A stretch of DNA of 63,734 nucleotides, the filler included, from Kipferlia bialata (taxonomy: Eukaryota): the NCBI GenBank assembly GCA_003568945.1. It is 5 parts of 5 records of this genome, joined end to end, with 100 filler letters (N's around TTAATTAATTAA, not from the genome) between each part and the next. Parts side by side here need not be neighbours in the genome. Positions count along the whole stretch, not along the records: positions 1 to 14,391 come from BDIP01000823.1; 4 more parts are not named here. One strand, given 5' to 3'. Below, piece after piece: positions 296 through 62,845 of the stretch. The position numbers and the translations under genes were made by a program. Each line of letters begins with the position of its first letter. Position 1 is the stretch's first letter. The notes beneath the pieces are model-generated. The model was given only the letters and a program-made list of their open reading frames with translations, was not told where the DNA came from and ran no database searches.

Positions 296-1761
296 CGTGA
301 GCACACTCCTCTGGTATCTGGCAATGTCATCCACAGTGTCCTTCCACCTAGGGTGAGACATTATCCATGCGTATATGAGTGGAAATGTACATGAAATATT
401 ACCTTTTGCCACTGATTTGAAGAGAAGATACAGATGTTGCATCAATTGCATATACATATGAGTAGTAGAGCTATTATCAGTATCCAATAAATGTATACAT
501 ACAATATTGATAACGTATTTTCTAATATAACATAGGTGAATGTATGCATTACCTTGGTAGCAGAGAGGGTGTCTCTGCATCTCCGTCGGCACCGGTGTAG
601 CGACGCACAACGTGGCCTGACGTTAGACCATCAATAGTAACACATGTGTACTAAAGAGTGGTTGCACTATGTACAAGGTACATATGTGTGTATGTGTGTA
701 CTCATACCAGTAAGTGGCAGCTCTGGTATCTCCCCCTCCACGGGCTGTACGGTGGCCAGCTCAATATAGGCACCCAGACAGCTACCCTGGAGACTAGGTG
801 TGAAGACTGGGTCGACGGGCACGTCAGACTCGACGAGAACGTCGTGCACAGCCGGCTCGACGGCCAGGGGCTCTGTGTGGGAGACGTCAGTCTCGACGTC
901 GACAGTTGTCGCGGTGTGGCTACCCTCCTCCTCCTCCTCCTCTCTCTCTCCCTCTCTCTCTCCCTCTATGGTGGATGTGGGTGCGTGGGATAGGAGAGAG
1001 GGGAGGACGGGCAGGAGGACCTTGCGAGCGTCGCCATACCTAGAGTTAAGGGTGTAGTAGAGAATGAGGGAGAGAGCTATAGTATACATTTAGTATGCTA
1101 CATATACACAAACACATACCTCTCCATCAGGAGTAGCAGATATGCCAGCCACAGACTGACAACGGGGGACAGGGTGTTGGGGGGGGCACAGGCCATGACA
1201 CGTAGGAGGGAACTAGAGTGAGTATATATATATCATAAATACATATACTAAGAGAGAGAGAGAGAGAGGGTGTTGGGGGGGGCACAGGCCATGACCCTTA
1301 AGAGAGCGCTAGAGTTAGACGTATGTATACATGTGTATATATATATGTGTATATATATATAGAGAGAGAGAGAGAGCGAGAGAGAGAGAAGGTGTTAGGA
1401 GGGGCACAGGCCATGACACGGAGGAGAGCGCTTAGAGTAAGAAGAGAGAGAGAGAGAGAGAGAGAGAGGGTGTGCGGAAAATGGCAAGGTGAGAAGAATT
1501 GAAATCTTTCCACATACCGGTAGTGACTGTCGAGCCTCTCATTGGGGATGCTCCTCTTGTTGCCCAGCTGGTACACCCTGGGTATTAGGATTCATATTCA
1601 TATTATATATATACATTCCATTGAATGAAGCTATAAACATACATGTAATGGTTACCCCCTTGTTACCGAGCGGGTACACCCGGAGGTTGGGGCCCGACAT
1701 GTGTATACATTTACTGTATAATACAATGAAACACACACTCTCTGTCAGCTGAAGACCAGCT

Positions 1762-1796
<35 letters not shown>

Positions 1797-3040
1797 CCCA
1801 TTTACAAGAGTATATACTTAATATATAATGTATATAATGTATGTACCTCTCTGTCAGCAGTGGTCTGAAGTCCAGGCTGAAGAGGCCCAATCTGTAGACT
1901 ACTCTCTCCCTCTATCTTCACTCTCTTGTTATAGTATTCATCCGTGCATTCATCATATATACAAATGGCCTATATAGGGCATACCTCTCTGTGAGGAGTG
2001 GCCTGAAGTCCAGGCTGAAGAGGCCCTTCTGCTCAGGGCCCTGGGGGGTTAGAGGTGTATATATATATAGAGAGAGAGAGAGAGAGACAGTAATTATACA
2101 TATATATGAGATACTATGGAAACTGAATGAGTAATGAAGAATGAAGAGACCCTTCTGCTCAGGGCCCTGGGGGGTCAGCAGGGGACAGATTCACCATTGA
2201 AATACCTATTATTCTCTAAATATAACATATATATTCTATATAGTATATTAATGTCTGGGGTCAGCACGGGACAGATACACTATATAATATAGACATTTAA
2301 TAGTAATTAATATGACTATTATATATAGTAATTACAATAGTATATTATTATGTTACATACTGACAGTCATCAGACAGCAGACGAATTGTATTATTCTAGT
2401 ACACACCTGCAGTGGTTACAGACAAGCAAGGTATACATGCTGTTACACTGACTGGGAATAATTATGAATCCATATTATTATTTATCCAAACTGTATATAT
2501 ACATAGAGACTGTATACCTGCAGGGGGTTACATAGCACTGGTCCCTTGTAGCTGGACAGACCTCCCAGGAGTCTGGTGCTGCCATACATCCTGAGGAATT
2601 AGGACAAATGAATATTATATATATATAGACATACACCCACACACACATATATTCATATGCTTATATATATAGACGGCTGGACAGACCACCCAGGAGTCTG
2701 GTGCTGCCATACATTCTGGTATTAGTATATATATACATATTATACACACATATATATATATATAATATACTACTTGGAGCTTGGTGCTGCCATACATCCT
2801 GAGGAATTAGGACACACTCACATATACACACTTGGTGAGGATAGATATGTAAGTACATTGGCAAAATTCACAATTGTCTGTATACTATATACTACTTGGA
2901 GCCTGGTGCTGCCATACATCCTGGGGGGTGAGTATAGTGTGCTGTATATATACACACTATATATGTGTATAACAGGTGATCATGAATATGAGTACGTACT
3001 TCTGCTTGGCCGACTCCTGTTGTCTGACGTGTGTCCTTAT

Positions 3041-3081
<41 letters not shown>

Positions 3082-4625
3082 CATATTATGTATTATACTC
3101 ACTTCTGCTTCTGTGACTCCTGTCTCACGTGTGTCCATATCAGTGGCCACACTATACATATATACAATGTATACTATACATATATATATACCACTATATA
3201 CTACTATACATACCTCTGCTTGGCCGACTCCTGTCTTACGTGTGTCCATATCAGTGGCCACACCCTGTGGTGGTAGGACACAGTGAGAAGACGGGTCTAT
3301 GGGTTAGTATATGTATATATACATATATACGAATATATATATGTATACATGTGTATCAGTGGCCACACCCTGTGGTGGTAGGACACCTTAAGGAGGGACG
3401 TCTGAGAGTAAGATAAAGAGTATTATATATATGTGTGTGTATATATGTATACAGATGTATGAGTGGCCACATCCTGTGGTGGAAGGCAACGGTCAGGAAG
3501 GTTAGGAATACGTGTATATGTATACATATAGCATACCTCTGTTGGCATCAGACCCCTCCTCTGCAGTCCATCCACCACGGCTAGGTACAGGTCCTTCTCG
3601 TGGTACAGCCTGTGGGGTAAGGTACAACATACTATATACACTATGCACACGCATATATACATACACAACTGTATTGATTATATACCCATATGTATATATA
3701 TATACTGGTACATATCCTTCTCGTGGTACAGACTGAGAGTAAGGTCATTTACCTGCCCACCCTATCCATGAACACTGTCCAATCTCTCTCTCCCCTTCCC
3801 CTCTCTCCCCCTCTCTCTCTATATATATATACACACTATATTACCTATCAGCCACCCTGTCCATGAACACTGTCCTCTGGCCTGTGATGCTAGGGGGGGA
3901 GGAATAGTCATCCTGAATGTAAGAAATCTATGTGTATAGCTGACAGTCTCTACATTTGAGAGACAAGAGGTAAATAACAATATCAGAGATAGTGAGTGCT
4001 AGGGGGAGTGGGGTAGTCATCCTGGGGGGTGAGAGGTGAAGAAAGTTACAATGAATATAACTATACAACAGTCCATGATTGCTGCGTATCAATACACATA
4101 CACTATACCTTCTTATGTATGCCGTCAACCAATTGATGCAGTGCTACATACTCTATGAACATAGACATCTATCTACATATATATATATATGTATGTCTAC
4201 TATAATATATACACATGTAATGTATGTATATAGGTACCTTCTTGTGAATCCCATCGAACAGCTGGTGCAGTGCTGCTCTATGAACACAATATACATACAC
4301 ACATATATATAGCTATATAGATATATATCCATATATGTATATATAAATATATATAGTAATACACACCTTCTTGTGGATGCCATCGAACAGTTGGTGCAGG
4401 GCCGCATACACACATGCATAAACATAAATACCAATATATATTAGTATCTATATACATATATATACATATGGTATTAATACAAATATACACTATACCTTCT
4501 TGTGGATGCCATCAAACAGCTGGTGCAGTGCGGCATGCTCTATGAACATGGATATCTCAGCCACACTGCCGTATCTGACTAGACCTAGGACATCACTACG
4601 GCTCATGTTTCTAGAGTAAGGGTCT

Positions 4626-4657
<32 letters not shown>

Positions 4658-6882
4658 CTCACAAGGCCAAGTACATCACTCCTGGACATGTTTCTGGGTA
4701 TGAGGGGGCAGAGAGAGAGAGAGAGAGACAGTAACTGGAATGCCTGACAATGGGTTGTAGTGAGTGCTTTATAAATTGACAAGTTATGTTGTACCTGACC
4801 CACTCTCCGATGTCAATCTCTGGTGTCTCTTCCTCCTCCTCCTCTTCCTGTACAGTCTCATCCACAGTGACCTGAGGTGTTAGAATATCTAAAATATACA
4901 TACATATATACGTTGTAGGCGCTCTCTTCATGGACAGTGACGTCCGCAGTCACCTGGCGTTATATACATACAAATATGTTCGACACAAATATGGTATATT
5001 TATATATATACTATACATATGTACATACCACTGTGTGTCTGACCAGTGGTCTTGATGTCACATATATAGAATATAGTATGTATACCCACAGTATCTCTCT
5101 ATATATATATCTCTCTCTCCATATACTAACACAGTATGCTCTCACCACGGTGTGTCTGACCAGGGGCCTTGATGTGACACGCATGGTCTGGAGGGGGGCA
5201 TCCATGCCTGATATATTAGTATGGTATAATATATATATACTTCTATATATATAGTGCAGATACAATGATTGTCTCCAGGTATATTTGGATATATATATAT
5301 ATATATATACACGCATGGTCTGGAGGGGGGGGTCCATGCCTAAGGGTCAGGGTATGTATAGAGTATGGACTAGACTAGCACATCAATATATACCAACCCT
5401 ATATGTATTATACTACTCTACACATATACCGTAGTATTTATACCTGGTAGGATAAACCCTCCTGCCAGTATGCATGTCTGGCCAAATATAAAACTACTCT
5501 ATACCAATATATATACTAATATATACAAATATATATATATACTATATACTATTGTTATGTTACCTGGCAGTATGAACCCTCCTGCCAGTATGCACGTCTG
5601 GCCATCTATACCACAACTCCATATCAATATATATACTAATATATACAAATCAATATATATATTATATATACTATTGTAATTATACCTGGTAAGATAAACC
5701 CCCCTGCCAGTATGCATGTCTGGCCATCGGTGGCAAGACTCTACTATAATATAGATACTTACAAACACATACACATACATATATATACATATATACAGAC
5801 TAACCGGGTAGGATGAACCCCCCTGCCAGTATGCATGTCTGGCCATCGGTGGCAAGGGCAGGGGGGATGCGGAACCTGAGGGTTACATAAGACATTGTAT
5901 AGTATATATATAAATATAACAAGGTATACATGTATATACACAAACATATATCCATATATGTATTGGTGACAAGGGCAGGGGGGATGCGGAACCTGGGGGA
6001 TATATGTATCATAACATCTATGTAGATATATACAATATACAGTTACACACATATGTGCATGTTACGTATATGCACTATACCTTCCCGTTTGTGGCCAGTA
6101 GAATGGGTAGCTGTACTCCACACTGCCACTGAAGGAGAGGGTCTCGGCAGCTGAGGCCGACCCTGCTCCTAGATATTAATATAGTTTGATTATACTATAT
6201 ACATATATATATATATACACTGCCAGAGAAGGAGAGGGTCTCGGCAGCTGATGCTGATCCGGCGCCTAGTAATTAGTATACTTTGATTATGCTATACATG
6301 TACATACATATACATATATATATATGTATATATACACTGCCAGAGAAGGAGAGGGTCTCGGCAGCTGAGGCAGAGCCAGCACCATATTGTGAGTTACATA
6401 TATACAGATAAGAAGAGAGAGGGATAAAGTCTCTCCCTACCGCAAAACCATATTGTGAGTTATGAGTATACTCATGGAGAGGAGAGAGTAGGATAGAGTC
6501 TCAGCAAACGCACATCCTCAAGATCCTACATATACACATAAGCATCCTCACAATGTGTACCTAGTGGCACCGAGCCAGCTGCTATCGTATCGTATCGTAT
6601 CGTATCGCATACCACATACATATATATACGATACTATAGGACAATATTCTACACATACCTAGTGGCACCGACCCAGCTGGCAGCTGCACCAGCATACCAT
6701 AGAAACGTGTTATATACTATGCACTACCTGTAGAATTACTATATATATATAACTGTATAGTACATATAGTACTACACCCATATCATACCTAGTGGCACTG
6801 ACCCCGCTGGCAGCTGCACCAGCAATCTCCAACCACTTCTGACAGGGGTGGCAGACAGGGACGTGACTGTGGGTTAGAGAGA

Positions 6883-6923
<41 letters not shown>

Positions 6924-8012
6924 GTAGTCTCCAGCCACTTCGGACAGGGGTGGCAGGATCATATATATATATATATATATGAGTACTCACCGTTGACATG
7001 TAGCTCGTACAGCTGCCCCGCCAGTGCACTCTGCACTGTGCCTGTCCGGCCCCTGTCCTTCTCCCTGACCTCCTGGGTGATGTACATCAGCTGCACAGGG
7101 GCACTTGATGCCTTATATCAGTAAATAGGTCTGGTTACAGTACATATACACTATTGGGTGATGTACATCAGTTGGACAGGAGCAGTGGAGGCCTAACGTG
7201 AGGTGGGTATATGGTAGATTAGTATATAAAGTATATAAAGATATGCTCATCATGGGTGATGTACATCAACTGCACAGGGGCTGAGGCAGGCTAAATGTCA
7301 GTATACATAGGAACAGTTATATATGTATTGTTATACGTATATGTGAGACTGGGTGATGTACATCAGTTGGACGGGGGCGGAGGCAGGCTGAGCAGTTGTA
7401 TCAGAAATAATGGCCTGTTGCCATGGACTAGTACACACTGTACATATGGCGTAAATGATATACACACTTACACCCACCTTAGCCTGCCCTGCATGCACAT
7501 GGATACACATCTCTATACATATACACTAATACCCACATAGGTCATCCAAATATTTGTCAGTATCTATATATATTTACCTTAGCCTGCCCTGCATGCACAT
7601 GGACGTACTTGCCAGACTCAGACCGGTCCTGGACATGAGAAGAGAGAGAATATATGTATCATACATACACACATACATAGCCTCTGTCATACCTCCTCTG
7701 TCTCCACCTCATGGACTGATCTGACCAGCAGCATATACTATAGCTTCTATATCGACTATACATACATATTTATATATACACACACACACACACACACATA
7801 TATATATGCTATATCTATCCACTCCTACCTCCTCTGTCTCCACCTCGTGGACTGATCTGACCAGCAGCATGGCAGAGCAGGAGGGGCTAGGAGTAAGGGG
7901 ATGAGTGTACATGTATATATGCATGGATAGAGAGAGAGAGAGAGGACTCATCTGACCAGCAGCATGGCAGAGCAGGAGGGGCTGATGGTAAGGGAGATAT
8001 CTATATACATAA

Positions 8013-8054
<42 letters not shown>

Positions 8055-8055
8055 C

Positions 8056-8091
<36 letters not shown>

Positions 8092-11000
8092 CATCTGACC
8101 AGAATCATAGCTAAGCAGGAGGGGCTGGGGGTAAGGTATATACATAATAGATAGAGACAGAAAGAGAGAGTAGAGATATAATGAGTGAGACAGATGTACA
8201 CACCTGCCAGCCTCGACCGAGAGGCATGGCACCCCTGCCTCCAGGTACCATACATACATATGATATACATATATTGATATGATTTACATATATAGATATG
8301 ATATATATACATATTGATGCCACTCTCTCACGTAGTATACATTAACGTACCTCCTAGACTCAATGCCTCCAGGTACCATACATAGATATGATATATATAT
8401 ATATATATATATTGATGCCATTCTCTCTTCTAGTATGCATTAAGGTACCTCCTAGACTCCACCGATAGGCATGGTACCCCTGCCTCCAGGTAGCGACGCA
8501 CAGAGACAGAGGTCTCGGGGGTCTAAGGGGTAAGAGAACGATAATTGTATTCAGATATTTCTGACCATTCACAATACACTACTATCCATACCTCTGGTAG
8601 TGCCGTGAGTGCCACTGCTGCCAGCAGAGATGTGCAGGAGTTCTTGGACCGGATGGCTGGGTGGTTAGAGACATAACAGAGTGGCAACTAGGACATCACA
8701 CAAAGGAACAAATTGACAGACGTATCCGTTCCTGACATAATCATAACTCTATCTCTAAATGTATAATCTATACATATATCTACATCACTGTATACTCACC
8801 CAGGTCCAAGAAGTGGGGTGTCACAAACACATTGTCCCTGCTTAAGGGTCCAGTGGCCATGTGCACAAGGGCATCCAGCCAGAAGGGGCACCAGGATGTA
8901 CTGTCAGAGTGGGTGCCTAGATATTAGTGGGTATGTACGTACGGACTTATATACATATATACACTATGGGTATATAACACAGGTATGTAGCCAGAAGGGG
9001 GACCAGGATGTACTGTCAGAGTGGGTGCCTAGTATAAGTATGTATATATACGTGGATAGATTATACATATACATATATATATACATATATATATACTATG
9101 TGTATATATATAGTATATGTATCCAGCCAGAAGGGGGACCAGGAGGTGGAGTCGGAGTGGGTGCCTGGTGTTAGTACTTTAGACTAAGACTATTTATCAG
9201 TACCCAAAAACACCCTACTGGACTAATACACGCCATCCTCACCTGTGACCCCGTACCATGTTGTCTCGGCATAGGTGCGTGTGGTGTCAAGGCCCTAGGG
9301 GGTTAGCGTTAGAACGAAGTGGTTCATACCCATACATGAATGTTACCCATTTGTTATGTCACTTATATATTTGATATAATATAAGTGTATGTGGCCCTGG
9401 GATGTCAGAAAGGAACCCTAAGTCTTATAGAAAGCATAGACATTTGGTGTGTTTGTTGCACATAGATGTATTGTATTGTCAAGGCCCTAGAGAGTTAGTG
9501 TTAGAGTTGATTCACACACCAATATACAATGTCACATGTATCATGGCATTGAGAAACTTCAATAACTATCTCAAGAAGTCTTTCTTAATGTACCTGGTAT
9601 CATACTGCCATTGCACTCTCCAGCCTAGACTCCTTGCCACACTCATTGATATATACATATATATGTATATTAACACATCCTAAGAGCCTTCTCTGAGTAT
9701 ACTATACCCACCTGGTATCTTACTGCCTGTGGCTTCTCAGCCATTGCACTCTCTCTCCTAGACTCCTTGGCCAGGGCACCCCCAAAGCCAAAGGACTGAG
9801 GGCCTGACCCTCCGTGCATGCGCCTACTATGAGGAAGAGTATACCATTATATACAGAGTTTAACCAGAGCCATGTACACACCTGGCATAAGAGGCAATAC
9901 TATGTACATACACAATGTATCTACCTGCTCTTCTTGGGCATGGCCAAGCCCACTCTCTCTCCATCAATAGATAAATACACTATCAGAGTATAATGAAATA
10001 TACTTTGGGAATACACATATTAATCTATACCTGCCCTTCTTTGCCTTGGGCATAGCCCCTCTCTCTCTCTCCATCCTTCTAGATCTAGGTGGAGCCATGG
10101 AGACCTCGTCCATAATGGGGGCTGGGGGTTAAATACAACAGAAAGGTCTAAATATGGTTACATTAGTATTTGAATATATGTGTTGTAGGGCATCCATACC
10201 TGCATTTCCAAGTGCCATGGCCATCATTGGTGGAGGGGGACCGCCTGACAGTTAGTATAGTATGAATACATAGATGTGAAAGTTAGTATAGTAAACATAT
10301 ATATACAAAAATATATGTGCATATACATATGTATATATACCTATCGGTACCAGTCAGAGAATGCAGTGGTAGCAATACACATACAGAAGTCAAAGAAAAT
10401 TGTGGGGAGCAAAGAATACTCAGAATTCAGGATTGGTAGGAGGACTTGAGGCAAATACAACACACTCCCTAGAATATGTATCACAATCATTAACATGCAC
10501 CACTAGCTATACAAATATATACATATATATACATATTATACATATACATATAATAGTATAACACCACTTAGTACATATAATACATACCCGCACCTGGTGG
10601 GGGACACTCACACATGCATATATAGGTATATACATATATATAATATATATACATATTATACATATACATATAATAGTACAACACCACTTAGTACATATAA
10701 TACATACCCGCACCTGGTGGGGGAGGGGGAGCCATGGACATACTGCTGCTGGGGGTGAGTCATGGAACAACCAGGAATAGAGTCTATAACAAAGGTAATA
10801 GATACATACCACAGCTACCTAGGTCATGGGACCACCAGGAATAGGGTATCTAACAGAATACAGGGAGAATTATGGGATCGGAACACCAGGAATAGAGTCT
10901 ATAACAATGGTAATAGAGTAAACATTGGGAACTAGTCAATATGCAACTGATACAGACCACAGATACCTAGGTGGGAGTGGGGGTGATGTCATTCCTGGCG

Positions 11001-14000
11001 AGAAATCCTCAGAGTCCTCGAAGGCGGCCTAGTATAAGGGAGTAAGGAATACATATACATTAAATGTATAATTATTCAGAACACATATATACATACATGT
11101 ATACAACATGCAGAGAAATCCTCAGAGTCCTCGAAGGGGGGCTGGGGTTAGTGAATGCAATACACTACATACTTATGAGCAAAAGGATAATTGTACAAAG
11201 TAAACGAAGGTGAATATGCAATAATATTGTATCATATCTTCAGAGTCCTCGAAGGGATGCTGGTATAGGGGAGTTAAGATTATACATACATACAATGAAT
11301 GTATAATTGTACAAATCACATATGCACATATGCCCACACTACTATTGAACACAACTATATACCTCGCTCTCCTCCTGGGGCTCCTCCCATACATTCAAAC
11401 ATATACATTCATGTCTAACCATCTATATGTGTGTACATCTATCCATACATATATGTATCTCCATACCTCGCCCTCCTCCTGGGGCTCCTCCTCTGCCTCC
11501 TCGGCATCAGTGACCTGGGGGTGAGAGAATAGTATTTAAACACACACACACATATATATATGATAATGAATTAATAGTTGAGTCTATCTTTTAATGATAT
11601 AACTAATCCATTAACTATATAATTCATTATGTCAATACCTCGTTGATCTGTAGGAATGACAGCACCATCACAATAACACCACTTACATACACAATATATA
11701 TATATATATATACATATAATGGATACAAGTATATATATATATACGGTATTACCTCGTTGATCTGTAGGAATGACAGCACTGCATCCTCCCTCATCGATGC
11801 CTCCCTGTCCCTGTTGGAACGGCCCTGGGTCTGAAGGTTAGTATACTAAANNNNNNNNNNNNNNNNNNNNNNNNNNNNNNNNNNNNNNNNNNNNNNNNNN
11901 NNNNNNNNNNNNNNNNNNNNNNNNNNTATATATATATAGTATGGGATGCCTCCCTGTCCCTGTTGGAACGGCCCTGGGTCTAGAGGTTAGATATGCATAC
12001 TTAATATACAAACATGGTATATATATGTATGTACAGTATATATATAGTACTCAGAGATGCCTCCCTGTCCCTGTTGGACCTGCCCTGGGTCTGGAGTTAG
12101 AGGTATAGACACAATATCATTATATAGATAGTGTATATAGTATCTGGGATGCCTCCCTGTCCCTGTTGGACCTGCCCTGGGTCTAAAGGTTAGAGAAAGA
12201 GAGGGGAAGATAATGAGTAAAGTCATATTGCATCTGTATGTGCCATATTTACCTCCAGTGACAATAGCTCCGACACATGTGACACCAGACTGGCACAGAC
12301 AGCGTCCATGCTCTGTCCCTCTCTGTCTCCCTCTGACAGAGAGAAGAGGGGCATGTACTGTCTGCACATGTCTGCAGAGAGCAGGGTCTCTAGCACACTG
12401 TGTGTAGTAATGAACCTAGAATATTAGGGGTGGAGAGAGAGAGAGAGAGAGATGTATGTCGGCACAGAGGATGGTCTCAAGGACAGAGTGTGTAGTAATG
12501 AACCTACGTGTAAGGAGTGTAGGGAGGGAGAGAGAGAGAGAAAGAGAGAGAGAGTGTAGGGCCTCTAGTATACTGTGGACGGTAAAAACTACACCACACT
12601 TGGTGTTGATAGCAGTATTGCCTATATATGTAAACATATTTGTATATACAAGCATTCTTATACATAACTGGGCTCTTCATCTGCTCCACTATTACTGTGA
12701 TGTCTGAGACATACATCACTCAGTATATACATATATAACAGTAGTGCCTATACATATATATATATATATATGTAATTATGTAGTATATATACCTTGCTGG
12801 GCTCTTCATCTGCTCCACTATCACAGTGATGTCTGAGACATACATCACACTATACAAATATATATACGAATATAGCAGTAGTGCTAATATGTATATGTAT
12901 TAATAGGTACTTATACCTAGCTGGGCTCTTCATCTGCTCCACTATCACAGTGATGTCTGAGCCATACATCACACTGTACATATACTAGTATACATACATA
13001 TACTAACTATATACATCTATAAGTGTATAGTATACATACCTAGCTGGGCTCTTCATCTGCTCCACTATTACTGTGATGTCTGAGAAATATATCACACTGT
13101 ATATATACTAGTAGTATACATACATATACAGACTATATACACCTTTACATATGCAGTATATATACCGAGCTGGGCTCTTCATCTGCTCCACTATCACTGT
13201 GATGTCTAAGACATACATCACACTGTATATATACTAGTAGTATACATACATATACTGACTGTATACACATATACATATGTAGTATGCATACCTAGCTGGG
13301 CTCTTCATCTGCTCCACTATCACTGTGATGTCTGAGTTGCAGTTGATGTACTCACGCAGGGCAGACTCTCTTTCAGCACCCTAGTGTTAGTGACAGTATG
13401 TGTATACATACATATATATATAGTAATTAATTATAAACTACTATTAATATATTGATTGATCAACTCGGCACCCTGGAGTGTCAGCCGTAGGGATCAATAG
13501 GGGAACAATACACACACACACATATATATAACTATATATATACACAGTTGATGTTATCACGCAGGGCAGACTCTCTCTCGCTACCCTGGAGTGTCAGATG
13601 TAGAATGTACACTGTATACCCTCTATACATGTATATGCAACATATACGTTTTATAGGGTTGTATGTATATATTATACTCATAACTACATGAATACCTCTG
13701 TTTCCAGCCCAATTGACGCCATGATGGCCCAGTGGTCCACAATGTCCAGCTGCATCTTGGACAGGACTGGAGTTAGTACTATTGAGATCATATATAGATA
13801 TATACATATATATTGTCAGAGTGCATTAACACATGTTTAGTCAGTGTATATATCATTCACATACGATGAGACGAAGTAACTCATCTCTTAACAATATGAA
13901 TGGACATATATATGGTCCACAAGGGAGAATATAGTTTATTGTATTCCACAATGTCCAGTTGCATCATAGACAGGACAGTTACGATTAGTAAATCATCACA

Positions 14001-14251
14001 AGTAAACATCCATATTCTTTTCATATCGATATGTTATATATATATGTTATATATAGCAGTACCTGTTGGCACCACATAGTCCCTGAAGAAGTCTCTGTCG
14101 AGACAGTACTAATGAATATACTAATACACATATACTAATATATACAACACATTATACCTGTAGGCACCACATATCCTGTGAAGAACTGTCTGTCCAGACA
14201 GTACATGGCAAAAGTGAACTCGTGAGAGACAAGGCGGGCATAGTGAGTGAT
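296..14251 (-). CDS. Partial multi-exon gene (both ends off-scaffold) for a very large conserved uncharacterised protein
   Basis: Manually spliced GT-AG exons read in frame: ITHYARLVSHEFTFAMYCLDRQFFTGYVVPT-VLSKMQLDIVDHW (14251-13697), RYQ-GLDTTRTYAETTWYG (9712-9244), PFWLDALVH..FVTPHFLDL-AIRSKNSCTSLLAAVALTALPE (8916-8592), LLVQLPAGSVPLG, YPFYWPQTG-RFRIPPA, LDFRPLL, LGNKRSIPNERLDSHY, LQGSCLGAYIEL, WKDTVDDIARY. From memory, the motif order matches a ~2000-aa hypothetical family seen in Planctomycetes and protists; unverified without a search. Confidence 0.8.
11851..11926. other. Intra-scaffold N gap
   Basis: Run of N without the linker motif, inside an array of exon-end copies. Similar gaps at 18655-18699, 38505-38542 and 48825-48866. 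Confidence 0.95.
12669..13336 (-). repeat. Six-unit tandem array (period about 125 bp) of an exon 3' end, most units with a GT donor
   Basis: CTGGGCTCTTCATCTGCTCCACTAT(C/T)AC(A/T)GTGATGTCT recurs near 12669, 12797, 12921, 13044, 13169 and 13296. It encodes DITVIVEQMKSP. Only the 13292-13381 unit is a complete exon. Confidence 0.95.
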
Positions 14252-14391
14252 CTTGGGTGAATGAGTCTTAAGCCGAAACAAATAGCTATTCAGATGGAAT
14301 AGTTTTACACCAACTCATATAGTGTGAACTACTTAAAATTCACGTTATATACAATTCCTAAATTGTTGTATGTATTCATAAGTATGTACCT

Positions 14392-31356: not shown

Positions 31357-31357
<1 letters not shown>

Positions 31358-32038
31358 TGACTGAGACTGTGCCTGTGGAGGGTCAGCCCACCCTGACTCC
31401 AGGTACATATATATATATGCATGTTAATAGAGTTTAGTCTGTTCTGACCTCAGTCTCTGCCCTCACTCCATCCACAGATATATATATGCTATATGTATAT
31501 GCTCTATATATATGCTATATATATACATATATACATGTAATTAGAGTTTAGTCTGTTCTGACCTCAGTCTCTGCCCTCACCCCCCTCACTCCATCCACAG
31601 GGGCAGAGATCACACCTGTGCCCCTGCATGAGGAGAGTGTGAGGGATGGTCTAAAGCAAGATGAGGAGGGAGGAGAGACAGTAATTGAGGGGACTGAGAG
31701 CAAGGCAGAGTCTACCACTACTACTCCAGAGATAGAGGGGGAGGGGGAGGGAGCAAGTGATGCAGGACCTAAGGAGAAGAAGGGCAAGGAGGGAGAGAGA
31801 GAGACGAAGGGCAAGGGCAAGGGCAAGGCTAAGCCCAAGGCGAGGCCAGAGCCTGAGCCATACAATGGTAAGTCTTCCCCAATCTTTCTCTCTCTCTCTA
31901 TTCCAGGTATATACGTCTCTCGAAGTTAGTTCCTTTTGTTCTCTCTCTCTCTCTGTTTGTCCTCGCATAGATATCTTACTATCTCGTTCGCCTTCTCTCT
32001 ATACATATGCATCTGTCTGTGTCTACTCCCCTACTTAG

Positions 32039-32076
<38 letters not shown>

Positions 32077-32407
32077 ACGTACACATACCATGTTAAAGCA
32101 TTATATGTCTCAATGTATATGTACTAATGGCTTGCTATATGTATATGTATTTGTGGTAACTGGAGTACAAGAGTGTTGATACTTCATCTCTACCTCTGAC
32201 TCAAGGGGTATCTCTCTCTCTCTTTATCTCTCGCTCGCTCGCTCGCTCGCTCTCTCTCTCTATATATATTCACATACACTCACTCTTGCTGTCTGTCTCT
32301 CCCTTTATGAACCTTTCTCTCTCTACATATACATGTGTTCTCACTCTAGGTGTCTGTCTCTCCCTGTATGACAAGGGAGTCTCTCTCTCCCCCCCCCCCT
32401 CTCTCCC

Positions 32408-32440
<33 letters not shown>

Positions 32441-33367
32441 ATCTCCATTTATGTCTCTTACTTCCAGGTGTCTGTCTCTCCCTGTATGACAAGGGTGTGT
32501 CACTCCCTCTCCCTCCCTCTCCCTCCCTCTCTCTCTCTCTCTATATATATATATCTTACCCTAGGTGTGTGTCTCTCCCTGTATGACAAGGGTGTATCAC
32601 TGCGTAAGAAGAGAGAGGCTGAGGCTGCGGAGAAGAGAGCAAAGGCCCTAAAGGAGGAGCTAGAGGTAAATATGTATCGGGGGAGAGAGATAAAGCGAGA
32701 GCAAAGGTCCTGAAGGAGCTAGTGGCATCCTCCCTCCTTATTATTATATCATTATTATATAATTATTATATTACTATAGTATTACTATTATTGTCTTTCA
32801 CTATTCACTATTCACTATTCACTGACCACAGGCCATCACCAGGCACCCAGACATCTATATCTGCATCCATATTCCACCATGTTTAGGATATATATATATG
32901 AATGTGGTATATATATTGTATATATACTAGATCTAACCACAGGCCATCACCAGACGTCCTGACATCTCAGTCTCGTCTAGAACAGTGCCCCCAATGCCAA
33001 GGGAGGCAGGGGTGGAATTCAGTACGCGAAATAGTGTATATATATATACGCGAATTAGTGTATAATGCCATATATATGTACCCCCAATGCCAAGGGAGGC
33101 AGGAGTGGAATTCAGTACGCGAATTAGTGTATTTACACTTCTATTCATTTCATCTGATGTTATGTATAATAGCCAATTACACTTACCCTAGGTGACTACT
33201 GCTATGCCTGGCGGGAGGAGGCAGACCACAAGATGGAGGCAGCTAGAGTGGAGAGGTATGTATGTATATATATTTATATATATATATGGAGAGAGAGAGA
33301 GAGAGAGAGAGAGGCAGACCACAAGATGGAGGCAGCTAGGGTGGAATAGAGAGACAGTATATATATA

Positions 33368-33400
<33 letters not shown>

Positions 33401-34121
33401 GCAGACCACAAGATGGAGGTAGCTAGGGTGGAGAGGTATGCGTTGGATATGTGATACATGTTCACAACTCAATACGTGTAATAACACCCATATTCAATAG
33501 TGTATACCTCCCTCTTCAGTGTTACCTCTGGATCTGTCTCTCTCTCTCTCTCCCTACACACTCACTCTATACCTATGAGTCCATATCTCCCTCTGCACCC
33601 TTAACTCTCTCTCTCTCTCCCCCTCTACACCCTTATTGCCAGGGACAGAGAGGCCGAGGTCCAGGACATGAAGGCCATGAAGAAGGTATATATACAAATT
33701 CATTTGTTTCTTTCCGTAGTATATTCAGTCTCCTTGGATCCACCTCCCTTTTGGTATATATATCCATTTATATATTTATATGTATATATATATATGTGTG
33801 TGTGTGTATATATTATCCATTATGTATATATGTGTATTCTCTACATGACTGTATTGTGTACACCCTTCTCCTCTCTCATATCCCAGGGTGGTAAGTTTGT
33901 GAGTGGCCGCTCAGCACGCATCCTGAAGGTATGGTACTGTATGATGATAGTATATATGTGGAGTACGAGTTATACTATATGTCTATATTTATATGCCTAA
34001 CCATAGGAGATGAAGGCCGAGGGCCGCCAGAGGGCACCCTTATACAAGGCACCCAAGGAGAAGGGGGAGGAGGGACTGGGGACATCTAGGATAGGTGTGT
34101 ATATACATATATGTATATACT

Positions 34122-34179
<58 letters not shown>

Positions 34180-34258
34180 TACTAGTTACAAGGCACCCAA
34201 GGAGAAGGCAGGGGAGGGGATTGGTACTACTAGGATACATATATATATATATTTGTAA

Positions 34259-34290
<32 letters not shown>

Positions 34291-35222
34291 TGGAGACTGG
34301 TACAAGCCACCCACGCAGAGAGGGGGTCTTTCAACGGTATATATGGAGACACATATATATTATTGTATATATTCGTGTGTGTGCGTGTGTGTTTGGAATT
34401 ACAAGCATAAATTAGATAGTATTGTGTTCTTAGAATGTGCCCCTTACACCCAGGCCAAGAAGGTAGATTGTCTATATATATATATATATATACAGTACCA
34501 GAAGTGTATATATGTTTATTATTCCTATGTTAACACCCAGGCACTCCCAAGGTCAAGAAGACACCCAAGAAGGGAATCACTTAGTATATACACAGTTTCT
34601 GTATTATATATATAGATTATCTATATACAGATTCATATACTCATATTAGGCCCCCCCAAGGCCAAGAAGACACCCAAGAAGGCAGAGGCTGACAAGGGCA
34701 GGAAGAGTGGCCTAGAGGTGCATGACAGACTGTACAGACTGGGCATGGCAAAGTGAGTCACATTCACATATGGACAGCATATACAGTGCCGCCAAGGAGC
34801 ATCAGGTATGGATAAACATATATATTTCTATTTATTATTTTTTTATACATACATATTATTTTCCACATATTCACATATTCACACCAGGTAGACAGTAGCA
34901 TATACATGAATATATATGAATGTATATGAATGTAACTACCCCCTTATTGTCAGGACAGGCAGAGAGAGAGGGCTGCCCAGCTGGATGCCCAGTGCACATT
35001 CAGTCCCACCATCAACTCAAACAGTGCGGAACTGGCTCAGGTACTATGGTATATACATATATGTACATTTGTTTGTATATATACATTTGTTTACGTATAT
35101 TTAAAAATATAGACATATTTTTTATATACACATTGTATATATATGTACACATTCAGTCCCACCATCAACTCAAACAGTGCGGAGTTAGCACAGGTATTGA
35201 GTAGAGTATATATACACGTCGG

Positions 35223-35269
<47 letters not shown>

Positions 35270-35300
35270 TTCTCACCCCCAGCGCAGTGCTGCCCGTCGG

Positions 35301-35333
<33 letters not shown>

Positions 35334-35632
35334 TACCCCAAGCGCAGTGCTGCACGTCGGTCTCTGCTACAGACCGAGGGGGAGAGGCGGAGGCTGCTGA
35401 GAGAGGTAGGTGTTATATATTTTCAGTGTATAAATATTGTATTATAGTATAGTAGTATTACTATGTTACTGAGGGAGGTAGGTGTCGTATATATATATAG
35501 ACTTGGCAAATATTCATGTTTTGTGGCTTTGTGTTTACCAGAGATTCACATACATATATATATGTGTGTGTAATTGTATCTAACCTTTCAGCAGAGTCTG
35601 CAGGCCTCCCCCTCTGCTGACAGTACCTAGTG

Positions 35633-35674
<42 letters not shown>

Positions 35675-36852
35675 TATTCCCTTGCATATATATTATATAT
35701 ACCATATAGGCATCTAATTTTTCAGCAGAGCCTCCAGGCCTCCCCCTCCGCTGAGAGTGAGCCTCAGGACAATGGGTCAGAGACAGAGACACAGAGGGAG
35801 AGAGGGAGAGAGAGACGGTCAGAGACAGAGTCACACAGAGAGAGAGACTCTGTGAGAGAGGTACCCAACACCGTTAGCAAATATATACGTTTATAGTGTT
35901 ATGTCTATGTATAGCATATATATATATGTCCCTTACCACTAGGGCATGTCCTCCAAGGCCTCCTTCGACCAGTTCATGTATCCCAAATATGGACATATAT
36001 GTATATATGTGTAGTATTCCTCATATATTTGTATATACTCACCCCTCAGGGCATGAGTAGCAAGGCCTCCTTTGACCAGTTCATGTCAAGGAACAGAAGG
36101 CACATACAGAAGCAGGTATATATAGTATATATAGTATGCTGTATCGATAATTAATATTGTTATTATTCGTATATATGTCGTCTGTTTTACAGGAACAGAC
36201 CAATATCAGTATCATTAGTAGTGAAGTTCAATACACACTATTACAAGTAGTTTGCGAGTGAATGTACATATGTCTAAATTATAGGAATGGACCCGCAAGT
36301 TCAACCAGCACCAGAAGGAACAGGAGGAGGAGAGGACATGCACCTTTACCCCTATGCTGGTGGCCAGGTATATATGTACATGTAGTTAGTATATATATAT
36401 ATATATACATATATATGATATATTAGTATGTTAGTGGAACAGGAGGAGGAGAGGACATGCACATTCACACCGATGCTGGTGACTAAGTTAGACACTATGT
36501 ATAATTATAGTACGTATCAAATATAGTATTTTACCTCACACTAGGGACCCCTCCACCTCCCAGCCATCCAGTGCCAGGGGCAGGACAAGAGACAGGGAGA
36601 TGTCACCACGGACCACACCCAACACATCAAGGTATGTATATATATATATATATATATACTCTATTATGTCATATACGTGTCACCACGGACCACCCCCAAC
36701 ACCTCTGGGTCATCTAGGGGGACACCCAACACATCAAGGTATATAGTTATAGTTATGTGTATATACTTGTGAATACTAATATATACTGGCATATACTAGT
36801 ATATGCGTATGTACTTGTATCTCTCGCCCCTTACACCTCCAGGGTCACAGTC

Positions 36853-36883
<31 letters not shown>

Positions 36884-38130
36884 GTTACTCATTTAGATTT
36901 CTATTTACACGCATATCCAAGTATATGTATACAATATATCATTCCCTACTAATGTATAGGGGCACCCCCACCAGTGCCAGAGGTAGTGCTAGGAGTAGTA
37001 TATATGTATGTACTTATATGTATACGCATTATTATATATATATATATATATCATTCCCTACTTATATACAGGGGCACCCCCACCAGTGCCAGAGGTAGTG
37101 CTAGGAGGACCCCTGTCTCTAGCAGAGACCACCTAGCCTCATCGGGCAGGACAACAGGTGAGGATTTGAGTCACTCTATTTCCCAATCACATTTTCTACT
37201 CCCATATGTGCTTATATATATATATATATAATATTATATATGCTTATATTATTATTATAATATTATATATATATATATTATATTATATATATATACATGT
37301 AAGTATACATCTCTAATACCAGATCAGCTCCCCACCACCCAGCATGGAAGGCCTCTCTCTCTCTCTCTCTCTCTCTCCATATATATATGTATGAATATAT
37401 ATATATGTATGTATATATATCTGTGAACTCTCACCCCAGACCAGCTACCCACTACGCAGCACGGCAGTCCTAGAACCACTCAGTCAGAGAGGGAGAGAGA
37501 GAGGAGGAGAGAGAGGGAGAGAGAGAGGGGCTCTCCTCGCAGTATGGCACTGTCAGGTATATACTATAGTATATGTTATATAGTATATACTTCTACTATT
37601 TACTGAGTAGCCTCGCAGCGTGGCACAGACAGGTAAATACTATATAGTGTATTTAATGTAGTGTATTTAATACTATTTGCTAATCATGTACTGAATAGTT
37701 TACTCTCTTCTCCTGGACCCCTATATGAAAGTATGTGTTTGACCCCAGGGAGAGAGAGTGAGAAGAAGAAGAGGGCTGCTGCGCTGAAGGCTCAGGTATC
37801 CAGACAACTGTTATATACATGGTCAACTACTATATTGAATGATTCTACGCAAGCCCATGCTAGGGTCCCCCCGCCCCCTACCCCGCTCTCTCTCTTAGAT
37901 ATATTTATATACATATATAAATATGGTCCTGTGATATGCTGCACTGAAGGCCCAGGTATATATATATATATATCCAAGCGGCGGTCATTGTTATACACTA
38001 CATTGAATATGTATGTTCCCTTTTCCATTTACAAACGCCCTATAGCTAACCGTAGTGCTCTATATATCCTACTCACTCTCTCTCTCCCCCACTCTCTCTA
38101 ACACCAGCGTCTCTATTAGCAGGGCCTGGC

Positions 38131-38164
<34 letters not shown>

Positions 38165-38229
38165 GTGTGTATATATACATACAGTAGTGTCAGATACTCA
38201 TACCAGCGTCTCTATGAGCAGGGTCTTGC

Positions 38230-38271
<42 letters not shown>

Positions 38272-39950
38272 GTGTGTGTATATATACATACAGTAGTGTC
38301 AGATACTGATATCAGCGCCTCTATGAGCAGGGTCTTGCCTCTCTCTCTCTCTCTCTATATATATATGTGTGTAACTAACCGTAGCGCCTCTATGAGCAGG
38401 GCCTGGCCTCTCTGTCCAAGAGGGACTCTCTCTCTCTCTCTGTCTCTCAATATATATTCTTATATATATAACTAATACCAGCGTCTCTATGAGCAGGGCC
38501 TGGCNNNNNNNNNNNNNNNNNNNNNNNNNNNNNNNNNNNNNNTATGAGCAGGGCCTGGCCTCTCTGTCCAAGAGGGACTCTCTCTCTCTCTCTCTCTGTC
38601 TCTATATATATATGTGTGTATAACTAACCCTTAGCGCCTCTATGAGCAGGGCCTGGCCTCTCTGTCCAAGAGGGACGAACTATCTAGACGGAGGGAGATG
38701 GAGAGGTATGTATATATATTTCTTTATGTATGTATGTATAAATAGAGAGAGAGAGATAGAGAGACAGTAGACTAGCTCTCCAGACGGAGGGAGATGGAGA
38801 GGTATGGTTACACATGTATATATATATAGATGTATAGAGAGAGAGAGGGAGAGAGATATGAGCTGTCCAGACGGAGGGAGATGGAGAGGTATGTATACAC
38901 ATATGTATTTACATAGATATGTTCTTGTATGTTATTGAGAGCGAGAGATCAGTGGTGGACGCACTCTCTAGACGGAGGGAGATGGAGAGGTATGATGATG
39001 TGTTTGGGTTTAAGTATATGCGTATATATCAATACACAAGATATATGTATGTGTATATACATCTAGATTACTCTATATCATTCAAAGATTCTTCGATGTA
39101 TCTAACCCCCATCTATCTATATAAATAGTTGTTAAATAGTTGTTAAATAGTTATAAATAGTTGTCTGACTCTCAGGAGTGCACATGTATGTATTCACTCT
39201 CTATATTAATATGCTATTGTATGTATCTAACTCTTAGGGAGATGCAGCTGCAGGAGTGCACATTCACTATATATATATATATATATGTATATATATACAT
39301 ATTATAGTATGTATATATATATGTTCTATGTATGTATCTAACTCCCAGGGAGATGCAGCTGCAGGAGTGCACATTCACACCAGACACACAGCGGTCGAGG
39401 AGGAGGTATATATACACATATTATGTATACGCATCTATGTATATACTGGATATATATGTGTCCATATGTGTATACATTCACACCAGACACACGGCGGTCT
39501 CGGAGGAGTACTAATGTATATGTGGTGTATGTATATTGTATAATTGTATTTATTCATACATTTTTATATTCCCAGAAGGAGGTATGACGGAGAACTGTCA
39601 GTACCGATGTATCTTTGGATAGTCATACATATGTATATATATATTCCTTATTATTGTATAACCTCTTATCCTAGCCTGGCCTCCCTCCGCAGTCCAGTCT
39701 CTAGTGGCCATAGAGACCTATATACATTAGTATATGCTATATGCACTATATATACTATGATATATGGTCTTACCACAGTATGGCTTCTCTCCGCAGTCCA
39801 GTCTCTGGTGGCCACAGAGACAGAGAGAGAGAGAGAGACAGAGATATGGACTACAGTCAGTCCATGTCCCCCAGACCCATGTCACTGGCACAGCAGTTCA
39901 GAGACAGTAGGTATATATAATGTATATATATATAGTACATAGTATATATG

Positions 39951-39981
<31 letters not shown>

Positions 39982-40304
39982 TCCATGTCCCCCAGACCAA
40001 TGTCACTGGCACAGCAGTTCAGAGATAGTAGGTATATACACACTTTATGTATAGTATATTTGTATAGAGAGAGAGAGAGAGAAAGAGAAAGAGCTAATGT
40101 CCCCCCTGGCACAGCAGTTCAGAGATAGTAGGTTTGTAGAGATAGCGTAGTTCATATAGTGTATTATCTGCATATCTCACGACAGGTTCTCTCTCTCCCC
40201 CTCTCTCTACAACGTAGTATCTCTCTCTCTCTCTATACATCTCTGTCTCTTACTCCAGGTTCTCCCCCTCCATGCTGCAGACAGGCCCTGCCTACATAGT
40301 CAGG

Positions 40305-40347
<43 letters not shown>

Positions 40348-41426
40348 ACACACACTTGTACTGTTTGCTAATAGCCAGCCCCGGAGAGAGGGACAGGGAG
40401 AGAGAGAGAGACAGGGAGAGAGACGTGGAGAGAGAGAGAGAGAGACAGTGGCAGCTCCAGGCTGCTCTTGAGTACCCTTCCCCTCTCCAAGGTTTGAAAG
40501 ACCCTTATTCACCCTCTCTACACCCTTATACCCCCCCTCTATTAATACCCAGCCTCCCAGCTAGGCCCTCGGTCCCCGCTGTCATACTCCACTGGACCAG
40601 CAGGTATAGAGTAGTATCATTACCTACACTATTAGAATATTTAATAATTTCTATATACTATGCTATTGTGAATACTGTACCCTCTCATACTCCACTGGAC
40701 CAGGAGGTATAGAGATATATGAGTGTGTATATATAGTATTTCTGATACCCAGGCTCCGGAGTTGGCAGTCCCTATGGCAGCACCTATGGGAGGGAGAGAG
40801 AGGCAGAGAGGGAGAGGGAGAGGGAGAGGGAGACTGACCCGGACAGTATAGAGGGCCTGTGCTCACTGGTGTCCAGCCTCAGTGGCACATTGGTACCCAG
40901 CAGGTATGTATATATATACATGTATGTAATAGGACATATACTGGATATTCCCTCTGAGAATATTCTGAGAGTATTATTCAGATGCTTGTTCTTGTTTGCT
41001 GCCCCCTTATGCCTCAGGAGCAGAAGCATGCAGGGATCCCCCAGCTATGCCACAGACAGCCACATGGAGTACTCTCCTCACACCCTACGCTCTCCCCCCT
41101 CTAGCGCCGCCTTTGGGTTCTCGTACAGTAAGGGTGTAGAGGGAGAGAGAGAGAGAGTGTGTGTGGACAGGCCAGAGTCTGCTGAGAGGGTGAGACCAGT
41201 CCCCTCTCCCGCTGTAGTGCCTTTAGTTAAGGGTGTAGAGGGAGAGAGAGAGAGAGAGTCTGCTAATTCCCCCCTTGAAGGCATAGCCCTAGAGCCAGTG
41301 GCTGAGATTGAGGGTGTAGAGTGTGGAAAGGTAGACCCAGAGACAGAGAGAGAGAGAGAGAGGATGGAGACCCTTAAGGCCAATCTGGAGAGGGAGAGAG
41401 AGCTCGAGAGAGAGCTGGGCCTCTAG
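31357..41426 (+). CDS. Large low-complexity protein with CTFxP and RLY repeats (putative cytoskeletal/microtubule-associated)
   Basis: Starts MTETVPVEGQPTLTP. Exons encode SLYDKGVSLRKKRE (32575), VHDRLYRLG (34718), QCTFSPTIN (34990), TCTFTPML (36335), RLYEQG (38635) and QECTFTPDT (39360). Last exon 41018-41426 ends ERELGL*. Confidence 0.75.
38107..38990 (+). repeat. Array of exon-start copies (acceptor + RLYEQGLA) and exon-end copies (LSRRREMER + GT) around exon 38635-38705
   Basis: AG-CG(C/T)CTCTATGAGCAGGG near 38107, 38206, 38315, 38385, 38481 and 38543. AGACGGAGGGAGATGGAGAG-GT ends near 38705, 38801, 38888 and 38989. Confidence 0.92.
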
Positions 41427-58158: not shown

Positions 58159-59139
58159 GCTGCGAAGTGCAGCACATGTGGTACCAGTGGCACTGAGTGT
58201 GACCTGTATGTGTGTCTCAACTGTGGCACCATGCTGTGTCAGGTACATAATATAGTGTATATACTAGTATATAGTATGTATGCATATAAACTATATGTAT
58301 GTGATCTGTATGTGTGTCTCAACTGTGGCCCTCTGCTGTGTCAGGTATGTGTATGCCATATATTTATACATATGAAGTGCTTAGTATGTACTCACATCCA
58401 GGGTGACTTCAGCAGAGGCAAGATGGGGGAGGGGCATGCAGCCATGCACGCCAGGTATGGGGCACACTTAGGCACTGATATATATACTCCCTATACTCTC
58501 ACTAGCTCACCCTCTCTCTCTCTCTCCCTGCACATCCCTCACCCCCAGAGCCAAGCACCACCCAGTGCACATGAGCATGGCAACAGGTATGAGTAGATTA
58601 GTATATAGTATATGTAGATTATGTAGTATAGTATATAATTATTGCCCAGTGCACATGAGCATGGCCACAGGTATGGATAGTATGTATATGTATATATAGT
58701 GATACGGGTAAACATAATACATTACTATTAGAGAGTAACAGGTATGTGTTTGTTGATAACATGATAATAGCTCACAAATTGTGGACTCTGCTCTCATCTA
58801 TATGAACCATGTAACACCAGGTGACCTGTTCTGCTATGAGTGCAAGGGAGTGGTGGACTCTGAGGAACTCAAGATGTGCATATCAGAGGACATGACGCCA
58901 CAGCTCACAGAACTCAGGTATATAGATAGACAGCTTGTATGTTGAACAATACAACCTTCATTTCTCTCTCTCCCCTCCCTAACCATCTCATCCCTTGGAG
59001 TAACTCAATTTCTCTCTCTGTCTCTCACTTATCCCTAGGAGTAAGGCCATGGGTCTGCTCTATACTCTCTCGTTCTCTCTCTCTCTGTCTCTCTCACTTA
59101 TTCCTAGGAGTAAGGCCATGGGACTGCTCTTTGGCTCTG

Positions 59140-59173
<34 letters not shown>

Positions 59174-60373: not shown

Positions 60374-60414
<41 letters not shown>

Positions 60415-62410: not shown

Positions 62411-62444
<34 letters not shown>

Positions 62445-62845
62445 TACTCACTCTAGCACTGTACATCTCCCACCCTGTCATCCCGACTAGGGCAGAGGCA
62501 GCAGCTGGGACAGCATTCTGTCTGCCAGACAAGACAGGCATATCGATCAGGGACTTGAGGTATGGGTGGTGTATATGTGTTATAAATGAATATTTGTATA
62601 TGTATATATAGTATATATAATTGTTTTGATAGATAGATATAGATACTATTAGGTACTGTATGACTGGCATATCAATGAGGGGCCTAGAATTTGCTACCTA
62701 TTTTGCATATATATATATATATACTATACATATTCACTGTGTACAGTTTATGTGTAGAATACTCACCCCCAGGGATAGTGACTCCCGGAAGGCTAAGCCA
62801 AAGGCCAAGGCAGGGTGTGCAGTGATCAGACCGAAGCCTAAGGTA

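Follow-up and report, generated by a model that had tools for sequence, protein, structure and literature searches.

Duplicated exon–intron borders have been described in several systems. In human F7, a 37-bp VNTR is reported to span the border between exon 7 and intron 7 (PMC1557585), and in potato RdRp a tandem genomic duplication is reported across an intron–exon boundary (PMC4974935). Junction-crossing duplication has been reviewed as a route to intron gain (PMC3443670, and Gao and Lynch 2009 as cited there), and tandem exon duplication is also known with mutually exclusive splicing (PMC9013439). For the species studied here, Kipferlia bialata, the genome paper reports a short-read SPAdes assembly with 124,912 GU-AG introns and a k-mer profile that suggests diploidy (PMC5874029); its spliceosome is reduced, with 87 of 174 proteins detected (PMC6679479).

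Here we describe intronic copies of exon ends, which we call echoes, whose differences from the live exons are mostly silent. Kipferlia is an intron-rich, free-living relative of Giardia. In the window, the whole 63,734-nucleotide stretch of K. bialata DNA that was analysed, echoes occur in all 8 of the unrelated genes or gene parts that we modelled, always adjoining the copied exon.

Two such copies, 49 nt each, sit in the intron upstream of exon 6168-6081 and differ from its head by silent changes only (Table 1). On the minus strand the live head (6169-6122) reads GGA GCA GGG TCG GCC TCA GCT GCC GAG ACC CTC TCC TTC AGT GGC AGT, copy 1 (6266-6219) GGC GCC GGA TCA GCA ... TTC TCT GGC AGT and copy 2 (6383-6336) GGT GCT GGC TCT GCC ... 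TTC TCT GGC AGT, with codon 1 taking its initial G from the end of the acceptor or of the preceding exon. All three translate as GAGSASAAETLSFSGS. Copy 1 departs from the live head at 7 positions (5 third positions and a 2-base AGT/TCT Ser switch), copy 2 at 6 (4 third positions and 2 from the Ser switch), and the copies from each other at 5, exclusively third positions (~0.004 under random positions). The third base is distinct in all three versions at codons 1-4, copy 1 deviates at codon 5, codons 6-13 are invariant, and codon 14 is TCT in both copies and AGT in the live exon. A triplet with one peptide, silent differences and a Ser codon-family switch is what the preliminary description had claimed, and codon comparison on the minus strand confirmed it.

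The three head versions are spaced 97 and 117 nt apart. Copies 1 and 2 share one breakpoint, at which they run into (TA)n. Copy 1 retains CTAAT...TAG; the acceptor region of copy 2 reads CTCACAATATG, without AG. Spacer 0 is homologous to spacer 1, with 26 of 31 matches in an alignment over the 3' 31 nt.

Read contigs, rather than raw reads, were compared with the window over 6066-6872 only (807 bases; 13 of the 26 pieces are listed), with run X2 as probable RNA and run X1 as probable DNA, both types being guesses, and X1 possibly the assembly's own sample. Because positions 6190-6340 were left out of this comparison as repeat, a lack of depth over copy 1 is uninformative and only a skipping junction counts. 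A 344-nt X1 contig spans 6342-6685 at depth 406 with 0 other letters, linking copy 2, its dead acceptor, the whole of tail echo B with its flanks and the donor side of tail echo A; the dead acceptor is therefore no consensus slip. The lack of AG claimed earlier for copy 2 thus holds in this DNA contig as in the window, where TG is found in its place. Among three X2 contigs here, two of 131 nt each (depths 82 and 77) skip exactly 620 nt, and the depth-82 contig is identical to the window, the 620-nt intron with all four of its echoes being spliced out. The opposite outcome named in the preliminary description, a copy 2 with intact AG in use as an alternative exon, did not appear: the acceptor is dead and the spliced junction omits both copies, rare echo inclusion lying below what contigs can show. 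Within the host gene model, contigs support just two features: the 6789/6168 junction, through joints, and the exon end at 6081, through a loose end that matches the following exon.

Table 1. Coordinates of gene models and of the features around the triplet, counted along the window.
Feature	Position	Strand	Details
G1 host gene model	296..14260	-	34 exons, 962 aa stop-free, 5' end lost in gap; 64 echoes
G5 gene model	31357..41426	+	27 predicted exons, 35 echoes
G10 gene model	52351..57405	+	21 predicted exons, 10 echoes
G11 gene model	58159..63526	+	19 predicted exons, 19 echoes
Live exon	6081..6168	-	88 nt, phase 1, AGSASAAETLSFSGSVEYSYPFYWPQTG; in 962-aa stop-free chain; covered by X2 contigs
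Spacer 0	6169..6216	-	(TA)n, branch-like motif, live exon's AG acceptor
Head echo, copy 1	6217..6265	-	AG intact at 6267-6266; ends into (TA)n; weak A|GTGTAT donor-like site only
Spacer 1	6266..6333	-	(TA)n, CTAAT branch motif, AG
Head echo, copy 2	6334..6382	-	breakpoint as in copy 1; 6342-6382 confirmed by X1 contig
Dead acceptor of copy 2	6383..6393	-	CTCAC branch motif, TG in place of AG; within X1 contig
Tail echo B of upstream exon	6561..6581	-	GT donor retained; X1 344-nt contig includes both flanks
Tail echo A of upstream exon	6659..6694	-	GT donor retained, 2 silent differences
GT-AG intron	6169..6788	-	620 nt; contains 2 head and 2 tail echoes; omitted by two X2 contigs
Upstream live exon	6789..6866	-	78 nt; X2 contigs join its 6789 end to 6168
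Decayed head echo of exon 6866-6789	6927..6956	-	C at 6934 and 6927

The other skipping X2 contig (depth 77, against 82) represents a second spliced form. Its joint is shifted and it departs from the window by 4 + 4 letters, giving at least 8 differences in 131 nt, all inside 71 nt around the junction, with 30 nt per side identical. The shift hints that the junction codon is GGT, the version found in copy 2. Judged from the contig ends, this form also appears to differ at 6142, and since that is a first codon position it is probably not purely silent; its changes at 6832 and 6825 are silent in the modelled frame. Its four differences in 6112-6166 might be accounted for by the three silent changes of copy 2 together with 6142. 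A 70-nt X1 genomic contig over 6786-6855 carries four differences and matches the second form, and in another X1 contig the live exon's end is followed by an intron unlike the window's. The 6832 variant is found in 8 X1 contigs against one such echo in the window, which another haplotype or a collapsed array might explain; the listed contigs of this kind have differing intron flanks, with a branch-and-AG flank of their own or a run into (CT)n. Echo 6956-6927 has the second form's C bases (6934 and 6927, equivalent to 6832 and 6825) and the adjacent live exon is without them, an agreement that could reflect later change of the live exon. A second form stitched from echo pieces was rejected, as a contiguous 70-nt genomic contig has an equal difference count and the echo's 6840 change is absent from the second form. 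We treat the second form as a putative allele, although it may be a paralogue.

Our models comprise 116 exons from 8 genes or parts of genes, picked where local repeats had appeared; echo-free genes at ~14.5-22 kb and 23-28.6 kb lie outside the models, so echo rates hold for the modelled genes only. Frames were taken from stop-free chains of canonical splice sites, and echoes were detected by nucleotides only. When every exon was searched against the introns on its two sides, 154 matches appeared, and a control scan against other genes' introns gave 17 matches in 696 comparisons, or ~6 expected in the real 232. Removal of 12 matches scoring <15 and 1 in a 3' flank left 141 echoes. Nearly every match scoring >=15 (141 of 142) is a head upstream or a tail downstream of its exon. 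Echoes stand at 92 exon ends, of which the triplet is one and not exceptional, and 89 of the 216 internal exon ends of the modelled genes bear one.

Each unit consists of an exon end, its splice site and ~70 nt of intron (medians: 34 nt for an echo, 106 nt for a unit). Median intron length is 92 nt without an echo and 197, 320, 437 and 590 nt with 1, 2, 3 and 4 echoes, a gain of ~105-120 nt per echo. The splice dinucleotide (AG or GT) is kept in 121 of 141 echoes, and some 'lost' sites may be indels. A naive exon predictor absorbed copy 1 and several other echoes. AAG instead of YAG acceptors are needed by two modelled exons (7111 and 35343). Candidate micro-exons of ~9-19 nt with AG and GT were located by eye at 34452-34460 (+), 34787-34805 (+) and 403-411 (-), and only 34787-34805 entered a gene model.

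Some arrays are long. Five tail echoes at 12665-13210 (-) have spacers 75-89% alike, the farthest echo being degenerate, and at least 6 head echoes at 38108-38587 (+) run into an N gap. At 7155-7391 (-), where there are three head echoes, the first residues ASSA, ASTA, PASA and PASA stand on a heavily silent-diverged background, and protein-level variation gathers beside the splice site. The duplications at 10523-10724 (-), 31404-31583 (+) and 10759-10970 (-) are mostly intronic; one such duplication, 99% identical over 82 nt at 120-nt spacing, is a rare case of a fresh copy from the same allele, useful as a neutral control.

The window appears to consist of five joined scaffolds, with N-TTAATTAATTAA-N linkers at 14430-14490, 28880-28980, 43360-43460 and 57830-57930, about every 14.4 kb. 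Segments 14490-28880 and 43460-57830 have a GC content of 52-53% and are TA-poor and echo-poor; the other three are TA-rich and echo-rich at 40-46% GC. Echo counts are 64, 42 and 19 in the TA-rich segments against 4 and 12 in the GC-rich pair, classes that may reflect recombination rate or heterozygosity. The region 14600-20000 (-) carries an adenylate/guanylate cyclase gene (PF00211) with no echoes seen, one of at least 11 Kipferlia relatives; its exon 15034-15192 is a 100% match to a named Kipferlia bialata protein, and all 11 protein matches come from that species. The segment with the triplet has introns in the same style, which suggests the same species for it. A small gene at 43500-44300 (-) is presumably an FKBP-type prolyl isomerase, judging by motif, and the N terminus of G11 has what we take to be a ZnF-UBP finger. 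G11 also contains internal multi-exon protein repeats (EEEREDEESSEDWERERDRGKRG twice, a GLPET-like motif four times), which are true coding duplications and not echoes. A weak protein search returned no allele or paralogue protein for the G5 exon. A metagenome scan with a G10 exon gave one locus (L001), which was set down to chance, having 68% GC, no TA runs and a stop in the matched frame (20 of 64 parts scanned).

Window-wide, 247 of the 372 codons that differ between echoes and live exons are silent (66%), or 68% once 4 nt are trimmed from each echo end. As a null we simulated a neutral copy beside a live exon accepting only silent change, with 200 runs per setting; it gives 34% silent (39% with kappa 4; maximum 47%). 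Because the observed share exceeds this null, both lineages must have been coding-constrained for most of their divergence. Echoes differ from live exons by pS 0.247 and pN 0.047 (pN/pS 0.19) and neighbouring echoes from each other by pS 0.294 and pN 0.055, with 87 of 136 differing codons silent between echoes. Mismatches fall 87/67/280 on codon positions 1/2/3. Replacements account for 125 of the 372 differing codons and stops for 4 of 1520 codons, and 60 of 141 echoes have no replacement at all. The echo pattern is real, general in the window and unexplained by ordinary decay.

The preliminary description had proposed that the silent divergence of the triplet arose while the sequence was coding elsewhere, before capture, and had named as a check whether dN/dS stays low genome-wide in copies with broken splice sites. 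In the window, the 20 dead-site echoes have the same pS as the 121 that keep their site (0.247) and a pN of 0.090 against 0.041, as expected if silent differences came first and decay later. The window-wide silent excess and the dead-site echoes together support that proposal, with other alleles of the same locus as the most likely 'elsewhere'.

Differences cluster along echoes (109 adjacent pairs versus 79 +/- 5.5, p=0.0005), and third-position mismatch is 0.22 near the splice site and 0.14-0.18 farther in, with the same direction in the second spliced form. The proximal echo is nearer the live exon in 20 versus 9 families (p=0.06). Replacements were not significantly conservative (mean BLOSUM62 -0.31 versus -0.48, p=0.11), three-state fourfold sites were not in excess (11 versus 7.5, p=0.13), and no ageing was clear by rank from the live exon (pN 0.046, 0.060 and 0.027 for ranks 1, 2 and 3+). 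Flank identity was uncorrelated with pS or pN across echoes.

We favour, with a probability of roughly 0.55, the reading that echoes are formerly working exon ends of very divergent alleles, which misregistered recombination between homologues has demoted to the intron. Seeding would start from a break within an exon that is repaired from the homologue. Repair synthesis would copy the homologue's exon end and continue into its unlike intron, and rejoining to the old end would occur at a microhomology of a few bases, often a dinucleotide repeat; the incoming end would go live and the old end would remain as an echo. If homologues share exon and not intron sequence, as we infer, repair of an exon break can copy an exon end plus part of an intron. 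During turnover, the live end and the echo would mispair between alleles, so that an array gains or loses units with a common breakpoint, and conversion tracts would produce stretches in which identical codons are mixed with deeply diverged ones. A demoted end would be silent-divergent from birth because it was under coding selection until demotion, and replacements, stops and dead splice sites would accumulate only afterwards. Echoes require no function; having a single splice site each, they are likely passed over by the spliceosome. Metamonads are reported to be without Ku and DNA-PKcs, with Ku-dependent end joining missing, recombination as the main repair route and alternative end joining in some (PMC8516963).

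Turnover as outlined predicts that differences shared by sibling echoes lie close to the breakpoint and private differences close to the splice site. The triplet fits this gradient, but it is absent window-wide (p=0.10 in two unanchored tests) and reversed in two anchored tests, and ageing by rank is weak; both speak against turnover. Repeated patchy conversion might conceivably have erased the expected gradients.

Breakpoints adjoin a dinucleotide repeat in 53 of 139 cases against an 18% background, and their overlap is 2.2 nt against 0.34 expected; the adjoining repeats could have grown after duplication. Neighbours have a common breakpoint in 25 of 49 echo pairs, and homologous spacers are clear in 11 of 38 sibling pairs, which differ 5/5/23 at codon positions 1/2/3. 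Because siblings with homologous spacers still differ chiefly at third positions, capture looks repeated and not a single event. Introner-type mobile introns would have one intron sequence family recurring in many unrelated genes; those spacers of different genes that were compared match only at a low-complexity baseline (mean 0.56).

The same observations are what an unlikely but substantial competitor would draw on, in which echoes are same-chromatid tandem duplicates under indirect selection in place, conversion or collapse rewriting the live exon and damaging changes being purged. Common breakpoints, homologous spacers between siblings that differ by codon position, the splice dinucleotide kept in 121 of 141 echoes and the patchiness of the differences would all suit it. 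Selection acting through rare conversion should be weak, however, and pN/pS is 0.19. Over 30 nt of flanking intron, echo and live exon have an identity of 0.68 against 0.66 for unrelated flanks, with only 2 of 118 at >=0.9, so few units look like fresh same-chromatid copies; one echo, moreover, resembles the other expressed form and not its neighbour. In-place selection and capture can work together.

It is improbable that the donors were paralogues or belonged to a second subgenome of allopolyploid or hybrid origin, with the mechanism otherwise equal. Deep divergence would agree with such donors: there are 9 Ser codon-family switches, more than one base is changed in 38 of 125 replacements, and fourfold sites show 64 transitions and 115 transversions, a near-random ratio. 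The second form's intron, unlike the window's, would agree as well. Yet the pattern recurs in all 8 modelled, unrelated genes, each time beside the copied exon, and two fixed subgenomes are too few for a triplet that needs three head versions, the second form being maybe a fourth; the k-mer profile, too, is reported as diploid (PMC5874029).

We consider it very unlikely that echoes are minor alternative or mutually exclusive exons in use and under coding selection. In favour of such use, copy 1 has an intact acceptor and a weak in-frame GT 45 nt past it, and one splice site is kept by most echoes (121 of 141). Near the broken end, however, a strong donor is present in just 2 of 60 head echoes and an acceptor in 4 of 61 tail echoes. 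All four echoes of the intron are also absent from the two spliced contigs, and copy 2 is without an acceptor. A slighter chance still attaches to an assembly artefact, in which a short-read assembler strung divergent haplotype pieces in tandem through microsatellites. The published assembly is a short-read SPAdes assembly of a diploid (PMC5874029), N gaps lie within three echo arrays, and no contig spans the whole stretch, X1 being maybe the same reads; against this, the separately assembled 344-nt X1 contig runs from copy 2 to echo A's donor side without a single difference. The reads themselves contain broken half-exons, as exon heads that pass directly into (CT)n are present in other X1 contigs, although copy number and order in long arrays could be wrong. 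Least credible is ordinary decay, with neutral copies seeming silent-biased since the live exon alone is protected: replacements in 125 of 372 differing codons and stops in 4 of 1520 codons are in its favour, but its simulated 34-39% silent (maximum 47%) falls short of the observed 66%, or 68% trimmed, and the silent excess is also present in echo-echo pairs.

Taking the demotion of allele ends one step further, we suggest, tentatively and at rather less than even odds, that Kipferlia homologues with unalignable introns routinely trade exon ends, the displaced ends staying behind as a dated allele archive at thousands of borders, in intron quanta of ~100 nt, with one-sided decoys skipped. If true, introns would have a general way of growing longer that involves neither transposon insertion nor slippage, seen here in a group for which classical end joining is reported to be missing (PMC8516963). 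Allele history and repair mechanism would be readable from one genome, and the echoes would allow a natural test, at many loci, of the way in which a reduced spliceosome selects the outermost sites among intact decoys. They also carry a warning, as K. bialata gene models can take in echoes as false exons. Junction-spanning duplications are already known; for the echo density and the silent excess in dead half-exons, our literature search found no report in Kipferlia, subscription journals being poorly covered and supplements outside the search, and the string 'duplicat' is absent from the main text of the K. bialata genome paper (PMC5874029).

Compared with described systems, the F7 VNTR, as its source presents it, is alike in that tandem repeats start in the exon, take the donor into the intron and leave silent pseudo-donors, with the most upstream donor used, as with the two tail echoes here. 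In Kipferlia, too, the first unit spans the exon-intron border and the pseudo splice sites are silent. The F7 repeat differs in being a single locus, on the donor side only, with pseudo-sites identical in sequence, whereas Kipferlia echoes occur at both exon ends, at 89 of 216 internal ends, in ~106-nt units and as silent-diverged copies. Near-identical units diverging without codon bias are not what we find, pN/pS being 0.19 and flanks mostly at control level.

Duplications described in connection with intron gain are similar in doubling an intron's 3' end and the exon head, with branch site and acceptor inherited. Direct tandem copies crossing the exon-intron border are likewise found here, 141 of 142 in the expected order, with spacers 0 and 1 homologous. 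In the described cases, however, the duplicate acquires a donor and a new intron forms; among echoes almost none has a second splice site, introns merely lengthen and divergence is of the coding type. A duplication providing both splice sites (AGGT or a latent donor) was not seen, and there is no new intron at the locus.

Mutually exclusive exons, as reported, share with echoes the presence of neighbouring exon-like copies within an intron, but they are included one at a time, and the Kipferlia half-exons are skipped in the spliced forms seen. Echoes are not whole exons with an acceptor and a donor per copy, having a median of 34 nt and a single splice site; nor was inclusion in mRNA observed, two X2 contigs skipping the entire intron (rare inclusion is invisible in contigs). 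Silent donor cassettes for gene conversion are found in Neisseria pilS, Borrelia vls and chicken Ig pseudogenes. Like echoes, these are promoterless partial copies beside a live gene with which they may exchange sequence; unlike echoes, they diversify a protein at dedicated loci, whereas the Kipferlia copies conserve protein, in unrelated genes. Such protein-conserving differences argue against programmed gene-conversion cassettes.
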